IMG/VR virus record: IMGVR_UViG_2703718787_000005
Source: a virus
Lineage: Duplodnaviria; Heunggongvirae; Uroviricota; Caudoviricetes
DNA length: 4,733 nt
Strand: one strand, 5' to 3'
Positions 275-4,701 of the stretch are shown here, one piece after another. The notes beneath the pieces are model-generated. The model saw nothing but the letters and a program-made list of their open reading frames with translations, made no database searches and had not been told where the DNA came from. A program made the translations under genes and the position numbers. Positions within the stretch are counted from its first letter, which is position 1; each line of letters opens with the position of its first letter.

Positions 275-556
275 TTATCCAGGAAATTGTCGTCTGGAGT
301 GGGTGACACTTACTATTTCAACACTCGAAGCGGCTACACGGTACAGAATGATATAGTTAGGATGAGCTACAATCTCACGCAAGCCAAACGCTCTGTCGCT
401 TGATGGGTATAAGTACGGATGTTCAGATAAAGCTAAAACACATGTCTCAATGCGAATCTTTAGCCTGCGTGCGGCATGGAGATTTTCTTTTGCAATATAG
501 GCTACGATCTGACGTAAATCATCACGTGCAGAAGGTAGCCATAAAATGGGCAGCAT
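275..556 (-). CDS. parE2: Type II toxin, ParE/RelE superfamily (ParE-like), 93 aa
   Basis: ORF track protein MLPILWLPSARDDLRQIVAYIAKEN...EIVAHPNYIILYRVAASSVEIVSVTHSRRQFPG has the length and motif pattern I associate with ParE toxins (N-terminal DL..I..YIA, central EHPYLYP, C-terminal YIILYRV...VEI..V.H.RR). Its ATG overlaps the upstream antitoxin stop by one base (TAATG at 558..554). The symbol rests on remembered resemblance to the paaA2-parE2 pair of E. coli O157 prophage; no alignment was run. Confidence 0.85.
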   Translation of the reverse strand: MLPILWLPSARDDLRQIVAYIAKENLHAARRLKIRIETCVLALSEHPYLYPSSDRAFGLREIVAHPNYIILYRVAASSVEIVSVTHSRRQFPG

Positions 557-747
557 TACACACTCCCGCTAGTCGCAGCAATTTGGGCAATGAGATTTTC
601 CATTTCTGCCATTACATCATCATGAGGAATTGCAGGGCGCGGATCTGCAAGATTTGCAGCTACTTTTGCACGTAGCCATTCGTTGTAATTATTTTCTTGC
701 TCAACGGTTTCAAACTCAGAAACCATCGGCGAAAGGGCAGTGTTCAT
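556..747 (-). CDS. paaA2: Type II antitoxin, PaaA2/ParD-like, 63 aa (MNTALSPMVSEFETVEQENNYNEWLRAKV...)
   Basis: I trimmed the 84-aa track ORF to the internal ATG at 747..745, which has a strong RBS (AAGGAGGT, 5-nt spacer). The longer version would overlap the repressor 3' end out of frame and has no RBS. The first ~45 residues match my recollection of PaaA2 antitoxin; the C-terminal ~18 residues do not match what I remember. The stop overlaps the toxin start. Confidence 0.8.
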   Translation of the reverse strand: MNTALSPMVSEFETVEQENNYNEWLRAKVAANLADPRPAIPHDDVMAEMENLIAQIAATSGSV

Positions 748-776
748 AACATACCTCCTTTGGCTTATGATGTAGA

Positions 777-1184
777 CTATGCTCGGTGCCCTTTCTGGGC
801 AGCGAGCCATCTTGCAACAGTGCGCTCCATTGATTCTTTTTTGTCTTTCATGTCTTTAAGCATTTTTTCTTGATCTTCCTCTGGAAATGCTCCGAATGTT
901 TGAAGCAGTTCCATTTGCCTGGGGCCTATTTTCATAGTATCTGGCACCACAACCTGCTCTTCTTCGTTTGGCGGTAACATAAACCAATATGGGGGATAAC
1001 CCGTTACTTCAGAAAGTTTATCAAGATTAGCTGTTGATGGACTTGTGATTCCGTGAACCCACTTTTGTACCGATTGCTGGGCAACACCAATCCTGCGGGC
1101 TAGTTCTGCCTGCTTAAGTCCTGTTTTTTCCAGTACCAATTTTATTCGGTACGTGGTTATTTCAAGGGTGGTCATTCGCTTCAT
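777..1184 (-). CDS. paaR2: Prophage repressor, XRE-family HTH, cI analogue (PaaR2-like), 135 aa, no S24/LexA-like autocleavage domain
   Basis: N-terminal HTH (LEKTGLKQAELARRIGVAQQSVQKWVHG). Divergent from the cro-like gene across a 107-bp operator/promoter region. At 135 aa it is too short for a peptidase S24 domain, and no Ala-Gly / GDSM-type motifs are visible. No Shine-Dalgarno precedes the ATG, so it may be leaderless. The symbol is inferred from gene context and is not verified. Confidence 0.8.
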   Translation of the reverse strand: MKRMTTLEITTYRIKLVLEKTGLKQAELARRIGVAQQSVQKWVHGITSPSTANLDKLSEVTGYPPYWFMLPPNEEEQVVVPDTMKIGPRQMELLQTFGAFPEEDQEKMLKDMKDKKESMERTVARWLAAQKGHRA

Positions 1185-1291: not shown

Positions 1292-1558
1292 ATGCATGAA
1301 TGTTTAAAAAATAAAATTCACCAAAGAGGGTTATCCCAAGCAGGTATTGCTCGTTTGATTGGATTACCGCAACAGGTTGTGTCTCGATGGGCTAATGGTC
1401 AGCAGGTCCCTGCATCAAGGGTTCTGCAACTTTGTGAGATTATGGCGTGGGAGGTTACCCCCCACGAACTCCGACCTGATATTTATCCTAACCCAACAGA
1501 CGGCTTGCCTGCTGAGTTTCAGACTAGCACACAGCCAGCGACGGGAGTTGATTCATGA
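1292..1558 (+). CDS. ydaS: Cro-like HTH regulator, YdaS family, 88 aa
   Basis: SD GGAG 8 nt upstream. HTH (GLSQAGIARLIGLPQQVVSRWANG) followed by the ...ELRPDIYP... motif I associate with YdaS-family Cro analogues of Rac-type prophages. Divergent from the repressor. The stop overlaps the next start (ATGA). Confidence 0.8.
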   Translation: MHECLKNKIHQRGLSQAGIARLIGLPQQVVSRWANGQQVPASRVLQLCEIMAWEVTPHELRPDIYPNPTDGLPAEFQTSTQPATGVDS

Positions 1559-1980
1559 AAATCAAGCATGAGCACATCCGCATGGCGATGAATGCCTGGG
1601 CATATCCTGACGGTGAGAAGGTGCCAGCTGCTGCTATTGCCAGAGCGTATTTTGAACTGGGGATGACATATCCCGAGTTGCACAACGACGACAGGCACAA
1701 CGCGCTCTATCTCAACACCCAAAAGATTTTCCGTTGGCTGGATAAAGACACTCCTGATGCTGTTGAGAAAATTCAGGCATTGTTACCGGCGATCGAAAGG
1801 GCAATGCCACCTCCGCTGGTAGCCCGAATGCGCAGCCACAGTTCCGCTTATTTTCGGGAGCTGGTGGAGACGCAGGAACGGCTAGTGAAAGATATCGATG
1901 ATTTCGTTGCATCAGCGATCGTTCTGTTCGACCAGATGAATCGTGGTGGTCCGGCGGGTAATTCCGTGGCTGTGCATTGA
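1555..1980 (+). CDS. ydaT: YdaT-family protein (annotated in databases as 'toxin YdaT'; functionally a CII analogue), 141 aa
   Basis: Starts MKIKHEHI, as I recall for Rac YdaT. SD GGGAG 7 nt upstream. ATGA overlap with the cro-like gene. It sits where lambda has cII. Confidence 0.8.
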   Translation: MKIKHEHIRMAMNAWAYPDGEKVPAAAIARAYFELGMTYPELHNDDRHNALYLNTQKIFRWLDKDTPDAVEKIQALLPAIERAMPPPLVARMRSHSSAYFRELVETQERLVKDIDDFVASAIVLFDQMNRGGPAGNSVAVH

Positions 1981-2051: not shown

Positions 2052-3092
2052 ATGGCTAATGCCTGGCTCAGATTATGGCATGACATGCCAAATGACCCTA
2101 AGTGGCGAACAATTTCCAGGGTGTCAGGACAGCCAATCGCAACAGTGATGGCTGTGTATATCCACCTTCTGGTGAGCGCGTCACGAAATGTCACGACATG
2201 TCACGGCGTGTCACTACGTGGTCACATTGATGTCACAACGGAAGATTTAGCAAGTGCACTTGATGTGACGGAAGAAGTAATTGATTCAATTTTGCAGGCG
2301 ATGCAGGGGCGGGTGCTTGATGGAGATTTAATCACTGGATGGGAAAAACGCCAGGTAGCGAAAGAGGATAACGGCAACGTTTCGCAAACCGCGAAATCCC
2401 CGGCAGAGCGTAAGAGAGCACAACGCGAGAGGGAAAAATTACGAAAACAGAATGAGGGGTGTCACGATGAGTCACGCATATGTCACGACATGTCACTACG
2501 AGTCACGACAGATAAAGATACAGATAAAGAATTAAACCCCACACATAACGCGCGCATGCGCGAGAGTGCTCCAACCGGTGAGTCGCATGGTGCGCCGTTG
2601 CAGACAGCCGAACCTGAATACCTGGACGGCCTGAGCGAACCGATCGGGAAATTTTCGATGACTACTGTCTGGCAGCCGTCGTCGGATTTTCGACAACGGG
2701 CAGCAGTGTGGGGTATGGCTCTGCCTGAGCCGGAATTTACACCTGCAGAGCTTGCCGCATTCCGGGATTACTGGATGGCGGAGGGGAAGGTTTTCACGCA
2801 GGTTCAGTGGGAGCAGAAATTTGCCCGCCACGTGCAGCACGTCAGGGCACAGGTAAAACCAGTCAGCAAGGGGGTAAACCATGCAGCAGCACCAGGTGGC
2901 ACCGCATCACGGGCAGTTCAGGAAATTCGGGCAGCACGTGAGCAGTGGGAACGTGAAAACGGATTTATCAGCGACGGAAACGGCCTGGAAGCTGTGGGAG
3001 CTTATGGGGGAGGTGTATTCGAACCGCTGGACTCAGAAGAACGGGGCCGCACCTTCGAAGCTCTGGATTGCCCAGATTGGTGCGATGACTGA
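2052..3092 (+). CDS. Replication initiator (lambda O analogue): replisome-organizer-type N-terminal domain, linker, DnaT-like C-terminal domain
   Basis: I take the start at ATG 2052 (SD AAGAGGTGA upstream); the track ORF begins at an in-frame GTG at 2046. N-terminal motifs W.RLWHDMPNDPKW ... TGWEKRQ resemble the phage replisome organizer N-terminal domain. The C-terminal part (FSMTTVWQPSSDF...FTPAELAAFRDYWMAEGKVFT) resembles the DnaT-like domain common in phage initiators. Two iteron arrays lie inside the gene. Family assignments are from memory. Confidence 0.8.
   Translation: MANAWLRLWHDMPNDPKWRTISRVSGQPIATVMAVYIHLLVSASRNVTTCHGVSLRGHIDVTTEDLASALDVTEEVIDSILQAMQGRVLDGDLITGWEKRQVAKEDNGNVSQTAKSPAERKRAQREREKLRKQNEGCHDESRICHDMSLRVTTDKDTDKELNPTHNARMRESAPTGESHGAPLQTAEPEYLDGLSEPIGKFSMTTVWQPSSDFRQRAAVWGMALPEPEFTPAELAAFRDYWMAEGKVFTQVQWEQKFARHVQHVRAQVKPVSKGVNHAAAPGGTASRAVQEIRAAREQWERENGFISDGNGLEAVGAYGGGVFEPLDSEERGRTFEALDCPDWCDD
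2180..2236. repeat. Iteron array 1: six direct GTCAC-containing repeats at 10/10/10/11/11-bp spacing
   Basis: GTCAC starts at 2180, 2190, 2200, 2210, 2221 and 2232, all in the same orientation and on a helical-repeat period, inside the N-terminal domain coding region. Shares an exact 17-mer with array 2. Confidence 0.7.
2461..2506. repeat. Iteron array 2: five direct GTCAC-containing repeats at 10/11/10/10-bp spacing
   Basis: GTCAC starts at 2461, 2471, 2482, 2492 and 2502, in the linker-coding region of the initiator. This is the position where lambda ori lies within O. Confidence 0.75.
2461..2562. other. Probable origin of replication: iteron array 2, then an AT-rich stretch with GATAAAGA x2 (2509-2536), then a 12-bp perfect palindrome CGCGCATGCGCG (2551-2562)
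   Basis: The iterons / AT-rich / palindrome order is what I recall for lambda ori, but that is recollection. All three elements are directly visible in the sequence. Confidence 0.5.
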
Positions 3093-3546
3093 ACAGCAAA
3101 TCCGTCTGGTCTGTCGTCAGTGCATGGACCGCTGCCGGGCGGGTGAAACGTGGCCCCCGGACCTGGCTGAGTTTGTTGCACTGATTTCGGAGAGTGGGGC
3201 AAATCCATTTGGTCTTACGGTGGATGCAGTGATGGAAGAGTACCGGCGCTGGCGCAATGAATCCTGGCGATACGACGGGAGTGATAAATACCCGTGGCCA
3301 CAGCCTGTGCTGTACCACATTTGCCTCGAGATGCGCACCAGAGGGATTGAACGTCAGATGACTGAAAGTGAGCTGAAACGACTTGCGGAACGACTGTTGA
3401 CCAAATGGGCAAAGAATGTTGGTAACGGCATGAGTGTTCCGCCAGTGCGACGACAACTGGAAGGGCCAAAACACCCGCCAGGGCCAACGCCAATTGAGTT
3501 ACTGAAACAGGAATATGAGCGCCGGAAAGCGGCTGGTTTTGTCTGA
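2881..3546 (+). CDS. Lambda P-like replication protein (helicase loader), up to 221 aa; start uncertain (ATG 2881, 3004 or 3085)
   Basis: The C-terminal two thirds align by eye with lambda P as I remember it (YPW motif; MTESELKRLAERLL vs LTDAELRRKAADEL; FVALISESGA vs FVAWCREEA). Resemblance seems to continue upstream of the ATG at 3085, which favours 3004 or 2881. ATG 2881 has the best RBS (AAGGGGG, 6-nt spacer) but overlaps the O-like gene by 212 nt out of frame. Gene finders that forbid long overlaps would probably call 3085. Confidence 0.65.
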   Translation: MQQHQVAPHHGQFRKFGQHVSSGNVKTDLSATETAWKLWELMGEVYSNRWTQKNGAAPSKLWIAQIGAMTEQQIRLVCRQCMDRCRAGETWPPDLAEFVALISESGANPFGLTVDAVMEEYRRWRNESWRYDGSDKYPWPQPVLYHICLEMRTRGIERQMTESELKRLAERLLTKWAKNVGNGMSVPPVRRQLEGPKHPPGPTPIELLKQEYERRKAAGFV

Positions 3547-3579
3547 ATTTGAGAAATGATTTTGTCGGAGGAAATTTTA

Positions 3580-4293
3580 ATGGAAACCGTTTTTGACGCA
3601 CTGAAAGCACTGAAAAGAGCCTCTTCACAGGAGGTGTCGGCCCGCCTTGGAATCAGCCGCGAAGATGCTGTCAACGAGCTGTGGAAGCTGAAACGCCGTG
3701 GTGAAGCTGATAACAAGGGGTCGATGTGGTGGCTGACGAGTGAGGCAACTGAAATGGCCACAAAAACCACTGCGGAGATGCTGATTAACGCAATTGAACA
3801 GCATGGTCCTCAGTCGGCTGACGAACTGGCGTTAATGTTCGGGATTACCTCCCGCCGGGCGAATTCAACGCTGGCAATGGCAATAAGCAAAGGTCGTCTG
3901 ATTCGAGTAAATCAGAACGGTAAATTTCGTTACTGCCTGCCGGGCGATAATTTACCAGCAGAGCCGAAAGCTGCATCGGTAACGGAAACTGCTGGTAAAG
4001 CCTTTCCTCAGCCAGCAGGTGTTGCGTTACCAGTCCGGGAAGCGGAAACACAGGAAGAAATTAAAACTGAAAGTGTGGCGGTCACAGTGCAGTCACAGCC
4101 GTCGTTCACCAGAAAGCATCCGGATAGTCTGATTTTACCATCGCTGCATGTGGCTAACCGCGAACTGCGCCGGGCAAAAGGTCAGGTTCAGAAGTGGGAG
4201 CGAGTCTGTGCTGCGCTGCGTGAGCTGAACAAGCACCGGGATATTGTCCGACAGATTGTCGATTCCTCCAGTCGTATTGTGTCGGAAAAGTGA
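3580..4293 (+). CDS. Hypothetical phage protein with two winged-helix-like modules and a C-terminal coiled-coil-like region, 237 aa
   Basis: I take the start at ATG 3580 (SD GGAGG, 8-nt spacer) rather than the track's 3556. Two internally similar ~55-aa modules (…[38 protein letters not shown] and …[43 protein letters not shown]), a Pro/Ala/Glu-rich linker, and a charged helical C-terminus. Function unknown. Confidence 0.7.
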
Positions 4294-4308
4294 TTGCCGG
4301 AGGTACTT

Positions 4309-4701
4309 ATGGCAAGAGTATTTACACAGGAAGAGCGGGAAGAAGTGAAGGCGCGCATTGTGGAATTCGTGCGCCTGAGCGGACGAGAAACTTTTCGACA
4401 ACTGGCAGATAAAACGGGTGTCAGTAAGACCGCTATTCGTCGTTTATCTGGTGCGCTTGCGGCCAGTGGTGATGTCTGGCTCTCTGATTGCGGGGTATTT
4501 CCATCAGAGCAGGCGTATCGCGTATGGCGTAAGACACCGGAGAAGGCTGCTGACCCGACACTGATTCGAAAGTTACCTGACGGAGAAATACGTCGTTACA
4601 ACAGATGGCAGAACATAATTTGTCGTGAGTGCCGCCAGAGCGAGGTTATGCAGCGTGTGCTGGCGTTCTATCGGGGAAACTTTCAGGAGGTGATGGAGTG
4701 A
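4309..4701 (+). CDS. ren: Ren-like protein, 130 aa
   Basis: I take the start at ATG 4309 (SD GGAGG, 5-nt spacer); the track ORF starts at TTG 4294. The C-terminus ...ICRECRQSEVMQRVLAFYRG resembles the lambda Ren C-terminus as I remember it (…ECRQSAAMKRVLAVYG…), and an HTH-like segment (ETFRQLADKTGVSKTAIRRLSGAL) precedes it. It follows the P-like gene, as ren does in lambda. Recollection, not alignment. Confidence 0.65.
   Translation: MARVFTQEEREEVKARIVEFVRLSGRETFRQLADKTGVSKTAIRRLSGALAASGDVWLSDCGVFPSEQAYRVWRKTPEKAADPTLIRKLPDGEIRRYNRWQNIICRECRQSEVMQRVLAFYRGNFQEVME

Follow-up and report, generated by a model that had tools for sequence, protein, structure and literature searches.

A long-form homologue of lambda Ren and a YdaW-family protein with duplicated winged helices behind the helicase loader of an Escherichia coli prophage

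Introduction

The gene ren of phage lambda is defined by escape from Rex. Phages lacking it (ren-) grow poorly on Rex+ lysogens, i.e. they are excluded by Rex, suppressors of this exclusion map to O and P, and ren travels with initiator-helicase-loader modules (10.1101/2021.04.19.439022; PMC3224144). Two-hybrid analysis revealed contacts of Ren with RexA and with RexB, with modest signals, and the RexB-Ren pair was also detected by yeast two-hybrid (10.1101/2021.04.19.439022; PMC3224144). P-lethality and replicative killing do not require Ren (PMC3640518). Here, we describe a homologue of Ren and the gene preceding it in a 4,733-nucleotide stretch of viral DNA (IMG/VR record IMGVR_UViG_2703718787_000005), which is called the window in the following. 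The preceding gene (gene 1) belongs to the DUF1627/YdaW family, and the Ren homologue (gene 2) belongs to the DUF977 family and is also named 'LygF'.

A known relative of gene 1 is YdaW of the Rac prophage of E. coli K-12, which an overexpression screen had returned as a blocker of RcaT, the toxin of retron-Sen2 (10.1101/2020.06.22.160242); 11 blockers were re-validated, and the paper does not state whether YdaW was among them. YdaW has been noted as a MarR-like predicted transcription factor (PMC9308461), and DUF977 has been recognised as a winged helix (PMC2686095). Literature searches for DUF977 and DUF1627 gave passing mentions only, and the name 'LygF' leads only to unrelated lysozyme papers. 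Another system for comparison is the prophage CP-933P of E. coli O157:H7, in which a toxin-antitoxin pair comes after the CI analogue, at the position that rexAB has in lambda (PMC8630535). The toxin ParE2 is paired with an antitoxin of its own, and regulation of the pair is by PaaR2 (CI-like), YdaS (Cro-like) and YdaT (CII-like); the paper mentions neither ydaW nor Ren (PMC8630535).

Results

Gene 2, a long member of the lambda Ren family

The two genes and their predicted parts are as follows; residue numbers (aa, amino acids) refer to the respective protein, and pLDDT is the predicted local distance difference test value of the AlphaFold2 (AF2) models.

3580-4293, plus strand: gene 1, DUF1627/YdaW family, 237 aa (Pfam, PHROG, RefSeq)
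3589-3735, plus strand: WH1, first winged helix of gene 1, aa 4-52 (AF2 pLDDT 95-97)
3772-3936, plus strand: WH2, second winged helix of gene 1, aa 65-119 (AF2 pLDDT 92-97)
3943-4131, plus strand: linker of gene 1, low-complexity, predicted disordered, aa 122-184 (pLDDT 48-69)
4144-4287, plus strand: C-terminal helical hairpin of gene 1, aa 189-236 (AF2 pLDDT 91-97)
4309-4701, plus strand: gene 2, DUF977/'LygF', 130 aa (Pfam, PHROG, BLASTP, hhalign)
4327-4500, plus strand: WH3, winged helix of gene 2, aa 7-64
4606-4677, plus strand: Ren C-terminal motif N.I..ECR.S..M.RVLA.Y.G of gene 2, aa 100-123 (47-sequence alignment)

Gene 2 matches Pfam DUF977 (PF06163) with 141.6 bits over residues 1-126 (cut-off 22.1) and phrog_142, the 'Ren-like exclusion protein' family, with E=7.5e-42 over residues 1-129. 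Lambda Ren (96 aa; sequence taken from J02459) is a member of the same PHROG (E=1.6e-41). However, it does not match Pfam DUF977 at E<=1, and therefore the equivalence of Ren and DUF977 shows in PHROGs and not in Pfam. In a direct comparison by BLASTP, gene 2 and lambda Ren align with an E-value of 5e-8 and 28% identity over 90 aa, and hhalign aligns the DUF977 and Ren families over 93 columns (97.8%, P=8e-13) and their C-terminal parts alone with 95.4% (P=1.8e-8). A reading of the window from its letters alone, called the sequence-only reading below, had recognised the C-terminal motif of lambda Ren in the last gene. This was confirmed, as ECRQSEVMQRVLAFY of gene 2 stands opposite ECRQSAAMKRVLAVY of lambda Ren at the end of the BLASTP alignment, and phrog_142, BLASTP and hhalign agree.

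To assess column conservation, 47 sequences of DUF977 and Ren were aligned together. Seven residues are invariant in 47/47 sequences, i.e. N102, I104, E107, S111, M114, R116 and L118, and all of them are situated in the C-terminal helix; C108, R109, V117, A119, Y121 and G123 are conserved in at least 90%. The winged helix is far more variable. Lambda Ren and gene 2 are colinear, with a winged helix, a wing Trp, a second strand and the invariant N.I..ECR.S..M.RVLA.Y helix. Gene 2 is 34 residues longer; it is extended at the N-terminus and has insertions both within and behind the wing. Its layout is a compact winged helix, an enlarged wing/linker and the invariant C-terminal helix. By these sequence comparisons, gene 2 is truly homologous to lambda Ren, as a longer form of it. 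A Foldseek search of gene 2 against the BFVD viral models yielded weak, generic winged helices (best E=6.5e-3) and did not recover lambda Ren.

Several variants of the two families were encountered. The proteins P0408, P0422 and P0441 are natural hybrids of a lambda-type Ren with a DUF977-type tail (..AFYRGNFQ). Two further chimeras (P0121; P0336) were a 204-aa product with Pfam matches to both DUF1627 and DUF977, and a product in which WH1 is fused to the middle of DUF977. All five may be due to recombination in the slot, or to frameshifts or assembly errors. The 57-aa protein P0482, which is present on 261 contigs, consists of the Ren winged helix only, without the conserved C-terminal helix, and is annotated as 'MarR family transcriptional regulator'.

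Three winged helices, of which two are a duplication

Gene 1 is a full-length member of the YdaW family. It matches Pfam DUF1627 (PF07789) with 283.7 bits over residues 72-226 (cut-off 28.1) and phrog_630 with E=1.5e-115 over residues 1-233. The Pfam model begins at residue 72 and therefore misses WH1 entirely; residues 1-71 (3580-3795) are covered by phrog_630 only.

Structure prediction of both proteins yielded winged helices in all three modules. The AF2 models show H-E-H-H-E-E topology with pLDDT values above 90 at aa 4-52 and 65-119 of gene 1 (mean for the whole protein 83.5) and at aa 7-64 of gene 2. The elements of WH1 are H4-11, E13-15, H16-23, H27-40, E43-46 and E49-52, those of WH2 are H65-75, H80-87, H91-103, E108-112 and E115-119, and the H1-S1-H2-H3-S2-S3 order of a winged helix is seen in WH1, WH2 and WH3. 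Fold searches led from gene 1 to tandem winged-helix proteins and from gene 2 to winged helices. All three modules are thus winged helices, as judged from the models. A sequence search of the Protein Data Bank gave nothing useful for gene 1 or gene 2.

The sequence-only reading had proposed, by eye, three similar Ren-like modules that share an acidic/Ser segment, G-(I/V)-(S/T), a short helix, a Gly and an aromatic wing. The motif, which starts with a polar/acidic helix, is indeed present in all three modules, with pieces such as ...RRG, ...SKG...FRYCL and, in gene 2, ETFRQLADKTGVS...ASG.VWL. It is no more than the helix2-turn-helix3-wing signature that winged helices have in general. As single sequences the modules do not resemble one another above chance: Smith-Waterman scores against 2000 shuffles corresponded to z=1.7 for WH1-WH2, z=-0.3 for WH1-WH3 and z=0.75 for WH2-WH3. 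WH2 and the N-terminus of lambda Ren reached z=5.0, a score attained by 1/2000 shuffles. As shuffling of single sequences gave no signal between the modules, family profiles were used. With these, hhalign related WH1 to WH2 over 53 columns (96.4%, P=1.3e-9), WH2 to WH3 (75%, P=2.5e-5) and WH2 to the N-terminus of lambda Ren (86%, P=4.8e-6). The values for WH1 with WH3 (21%, P=1e-3) were not significant, those for WH1 with the Ren N-terminus were 10% (P=3e-3), and negative controls with the hairpin stayed below 1%.

Searches with hidden Markov models (HMMs) gave the same picture. The WH2 HMM found WH1 at 1.5e-8 and Ren N-termini at 3.4e-5 (14/29 below 0.01); the WH1 HMM found neither WH3 nor Ren. 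The HMM of the Ren winged helix matched WH2 in 11 of 60 DUF1627 members and WH1 in 1/60, and on gene 1 of the window it aligned to WH1 and WH2 in register, without significance. Outside its own families, the best match of gene 1 was residues 57-118 to the Ren-like phrog_142 (E=7.4e-7, 30.3 bits), while generic Pfam winged-helix models reached at best 18-23 bits. Thus, at the level of profiles, WH1 and WH2 are a true internal duplication, and WH2 appears as a hub that is related to WH1 and, moderately to distantly, to the Ren/DUF977 winged helix. WH1 would be Ren-like only by transitivity. Of the proposal of three Ren-like modules, the fold of all three and the relationship of WH2 to Ren were upheld; WH1 taken alone is not detectably Ren-like.

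Architecture of the YdaW family

The order WH1, WH2, linker, hairpin is common to 50 representatives of the DUF1627 family. The linker varies in length and composition, and it ends with the conserved motif (I)PSFT...D.LI.P; this PSFT/DDLIIP segment is kept in the family alignment. The hairpin (H189-218 and H220-236 in the model) has the pattern EIRR.K..L..LE..R.A.REL.KH, which is kept across the family. It is unrelated to the winged helices and to the Ren C-terminus (hhalign <1%), and it is likely to be an oligomerisation or partner-binding element.

Short DUF1627 members (117-170 aa) lack WH2, and their WH1 is joined straight to the PSFT motif and the hairpin (P0249, P0261, P0269, P0347, P0367, P0369, P0374). 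Therefore, WH2 behaves as an optional inserted module. Another observation concerns phrog_1687, a phage profile of 162 positions designated 'MarR family': the N-terminus of lambda Ren matches its positions 1-65 (E=1.5e-10), and WH1 of gene 1 matches positions 69-129. This suggests that phrog_1687 represents a further phage family with two winged helices in tandem, the first of which is Ren-like.

In comparison with the Rac prophage, the two winged helices of gene 1 have 58% identity with those of K-12 YdaW, and at the DNA level gene 1 is about 82% identical to Rac phage ydaW. K-12 YdaW (b1361; locus L084, 3253-3813) is a truncated form, which departs from the family sequence after residue ~151 and has no C-terminal hairpin. 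In Rac, as in the window, ydaW follows the loader and is itself followed by a DUF977 gene, which is named lygF in phage records; however, the Rac loader is the DnaC-like YdaV, while that of the window is of the lambda-P type.

The best structural matches of gene 1 were ScpB, SelB C-terminal domains, ESCRT-II subunits, AlkZ/YcaQ and DIP2311 (Foldseek E 2e-5 to 1e-3). Gene 1 shares with these tandem winged-helix proteins that two consecutive winged helices form a unit. Identities are 10-20% and TM-scores 0.2-0.4, the latter being low because the relative domain orientation differs, and no family membership follows from these matches. None of these proteins has the DUF1627 linker and hairpin.

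The slot after the helicase loader

The genomic position was surveyed in 80 IMG/VR loci, mostly close relatives of the window, and 13 loci from other species (one genome per species). In 80/80 IMG/VR loci the DUF1627 gene directly follows the helicase loader, which is either of the lambda-P or of the DnaC/YdaV type. In the 13 other-species loci it directly follows the loader or a replication gene; these include E. albertii, E. ruysiae, Citrobacter, Serratia, Enterobacter and Salmonella. DUF977 is situated immediately after DUF1627 in 34 of the 80 loci, and it is found behind both loader types and with different initiators. In the remaining loci the next gene is an open reading frame (ORF) of 74-75 aa or a DUF4406 gene. 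The 74-75-aa ORF was considered as a short Ren and rejected, since it belongs to the unrelated family phrog_1001.

The order can also be reversed. Citrobacter braakii has a DnaC-like loader, a 109-aa Ren-family gene (phrog_142, E=7e-14) and then DUF1627, and the same order was found in a metagenome-assembled genome labelled Proteobacteria. In these 109-aa genes QECRRNW replaces KECRQS:

L087, 3662-3991: 109-aa Ren-family gene
L088, 3663-3992: 109-aa Ren-family gene

Lambda has Ren without DUF1627. Lambda ren and gene 2 both belong to the rightward early operon and come behind its replication genes, with the order O, P, ren in lambda and O, P, DUF1627, DUF977 in the window, i.e. with one gene in between. 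The slot after the loader is mosaic and variable: the DUF1627 and Ren/DUF977 families share it, are often adjacent, and assort independently, as seen from the reversed orders, the partial presence of DUF977 and the solitary Ren of lambda. One viral contig contains a second DUF977/Ren-family ORF about 3.2 kb downstream of the first (L045, 8395-8721); it is incomplete because the locus ends within it.

Gene content of the window

The order of the genes was established with ORFs, Pfam and PHROGs, together with the RefSeq annotation of a near-identical copy. The window is 98.4% identical, over its full length, to a prophage beside potC in two E. coli chromosomes, and parts of it are present in 4223 of 5426 complete E. 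coli genomes. It represents the region for immunity and replication of a lambdoid prophage of E. coli and contains, besides the two genes described above:

275-556, minus strand: ParE toxin (Pfam 59.9 bits)
556-747, minus strand: PaaA2 antitoxin (Pfam 71.3 bits)
777-1184, minus strand: CI-like helix-turn-helix (HTH) repressor
1292-1558, plus strand: Cro/YdaS-like
1555-1980, plus strand: CII/YdaT-like
2052-3092, plus strand: O-like initiator with DnaT domain
3085-3546, plus strand: lambda-P-type helicase loader
from 4698: start (GTG) of a DUF4406 gene

Gene 1 and gene 2 are annotated likewise by RefSeq in the 98.4% identical prophage, and to the minus-strand ORFs within 3580-4701 no RefSeq coding sequence of that copy corresponds. 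Both genes have short upstream spacers and good Shine-Dalgarno sites, i.e. GGAGG at 3568-3572, 7 nt ahead of the ATG of gene 1, and GGAGG at 4299-4303, 5 nt ahead of the ATG of gene 2. Neither a promoter-like site nor a convincing terminator was found between P and the two genes, and therefore they belong to the rightward early operon. The O and P genes overlap by 8 nt (ATGACTGA, 3085-3092) and the DUF977 and DUF4406 genes by 4 nt (GTGA, 4698-4701), which is consistent with translational coupling along the operon. No Rfam family matched anywhere in the window. The O-like gene contains two clusters (2178-2227 and 2470-2519) 272 bp apart, each consisting of three overlapping copies of a repeat with ~10-bp spacing (ATGTCACGNC...), which are probably the origin iterons of the prophage.

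The left half, in which the CI-like, PaaA2 and ParE genes share one strand and the YdaS-like and YdaT-like genes lie on the opposite strand, has the same organisation as paaR2-paaA2-parE2/ydaS-ydaT of CP-933P (PMC8630535). The genes for ParE, PaaA2 and the CI-like protein (275-1184, minus strand) form a single leftward unit, which stands where lambda has cI-rexA-rexB. The longest PaaA2 ORF (556-810) would run into the CI-like gene; the RefSeq start is shorter (556-747). The statement of the sequence-only reading that the rex slot holds a toxin-antitoxin pair is therefore correct, and this arrangement was already known for CP-933P (PMC8630535).

Discussion

The reading that we favour, with a probability of about 0.6, is that gene 1 and gene 2 are co-transcribed accessory genes after the helicase loader, which encode winged-helix adaptors tied to replication and exclusion and not classical repressors. 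Both products would be made early, from a pR-type operon together with O and P, and would probably be small adaptors. The Ren-like C-terminal helix would contact a partner common to phages with different initiators and loaders: because its polar residues are invariant behind differing loaders and initiators, the partner is inferred to be common to many hosts or prophages. This would point away from O and P and towards a host factor or a component of exclusion or defence that is widespread. O/P-type replication could thereby proceed without triggering exclusion. Gene 1 may oligomerise via its hairpin and present two winged helices to a DNA or protein partner.

Several points weigh against this explanation. 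To state that a protein works like Ren carries little mechanism, and the prophage has no rexAB according to Pfam and the RefSeq annotation of the window region; therefore, the defining phenotype of Ren cannot apply as such. AF2 confidence for the Ren-like C-terminal part of gene 2 is only 57-80. The two-hybrid contacts of Ren were weak or seen with a single vector combination (10.1101/2021.04.19.439022; PMC3224144), and the result of the YdaW screen could be indirect (10.1101/2020.06.22.160242). DUF977 is absent from more than half of the DUF1627 loci, and lambda Ren occurs without DUF1627; therefore, the two genes need not work together. Finally, winged helices commonly bind DNA, so that a plain regulatory role has to be taken seriously.

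Such a role would mean that the proteins are sequence-specific DNA-binding regulators of early-to-late transcription or of origin usage, without any link to exclusion or defence. The fold of all three modules would suit it, the nearest solved relatives include ArsR, MarR and IclR repressors, Pfam and NCBIfam contain weak matches to HTH regulator families, and YdaW is among the predicted E. coli transcription factors (PMC9308461). However, every one of these family matches stays under its curated cut-off (MarR_2, HTH_24, HTH_5 and related models in Pfam and NCBIfam), NCBIfam gave nothing meaningful for either gene, and dimerisation helices of the MarR/ArsR type, flanking the winged helices, are not present in the AF2 models. 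The hallmarks of Z-alpha domains (Asn and Tyr in helix 3, Pro-Pro-x-Trp in the wing) were likewise not found. The best structural matches of gene 1 include tandem winged helices that bind proteins or RNA (ScpB, SelB, ESCRT-II, UFL1), the recognition helix of WH1 is variable and often acidic across the DUF1627 family, and the most conserved part of the Ren family is its C-terminal helix and not the recognition helix. We regard a purely regulatory function as rather unlikely, and a function in counter-defence as somewhat less likely still. In the latter, one or both proteins would neutralise abortive-infection or toxin systems, such as Rex-like systems or retron toxins, and would do so without involving replication. 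Escape from Rex is the property that defines lambda ren, and its product contacts RexA and RexB (10.1101/2021.04.19.439022), PHROG places phrog_142 under host takeover, K-12 YdaW blocked RcaT toxicity with two winged helices only (10.1101/2020.06.22.160242), and a mosaic, variable slot is expected for accessory or arms-race genes. Nevertheless, the suppressors of ren- lie in O and P (10.1101/2021.04.19.439022) and thus tie the phenotype to replication. The RcaT screen also yielded other DNA-binding prophage proteins, e.g. DicC (10.1101/2020.06.22.160242), and therefore the YdaW effect may be indirect. PADLOC gave no defence-component match, its best E-values (7e-4 to 0.03) being confined to winged-helix segments, and lambda Ren did not match either; the PADLOC library does not cover anti-defence genes.

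A broader version, which we consider equally doubtful, is that YdaW/DUF1627 and Ren/DUF977 form a related counter-defence set that keeps the sensors and toxins of abortive infection (Rex-type, RcaT) away from phage replication complexes or from the by-products of these. If this were true, the shared ancestry of WH2 and Ren would reflect arms-race diversification, and shielding would explain the placement next to replication genes. Either protein may act against some host defence. Very improbable, by comparison, is the idea of the sequence-only reading that a Ren-type function is directed at the resident toxin-antitoxin pair. It was founded on the parallel that ParE/PaaA2 is situated downstream of the CI-like gene, where lambda has rexAB. 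However, ParE and DUF977 are independent among 50 related loci with enough flank (both present in 7, ParE only in 6, DUF977 only in 14, neither in 23; odds ratio 1.9, Fisher p=0.35), in which ParE could sit beyond the 4-kb flank if the replication module is longer. In addition, Rac-type prophages carry homologues of gene 1 and gene 2 but no such pair, and ParE2 is already controlled by its own antitoxin, PaaR2, YdaS and YdaT (PMC8630535).

Both families were catalogued before, and that of gene 2 was already labelled Ren-like in PHROGs. What is added here is the WH1-WH2 duplication, the link between WH2 and Ren, the omission of WH1 from the Pfam DUF1627 model, and the fixed position after the loader, with Ren-family genes on either side. 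These results leave the kind of system unchanged. Ren is among the last lambda early genes to lack an assigned mechanism, and E. coli prophages very commonly carry Ren relatives and members of the YdaW family. The design of experiments is made easier by the recognition that Pfam DUF977 is the long form of Ren, that conservation within the family falls on the C-terminal helix and not on the DNA-reading helix, and that YdaW proteins, by profile comparison, are duplicated winged helices, distantly linked to Ren and fixed in the same slot.

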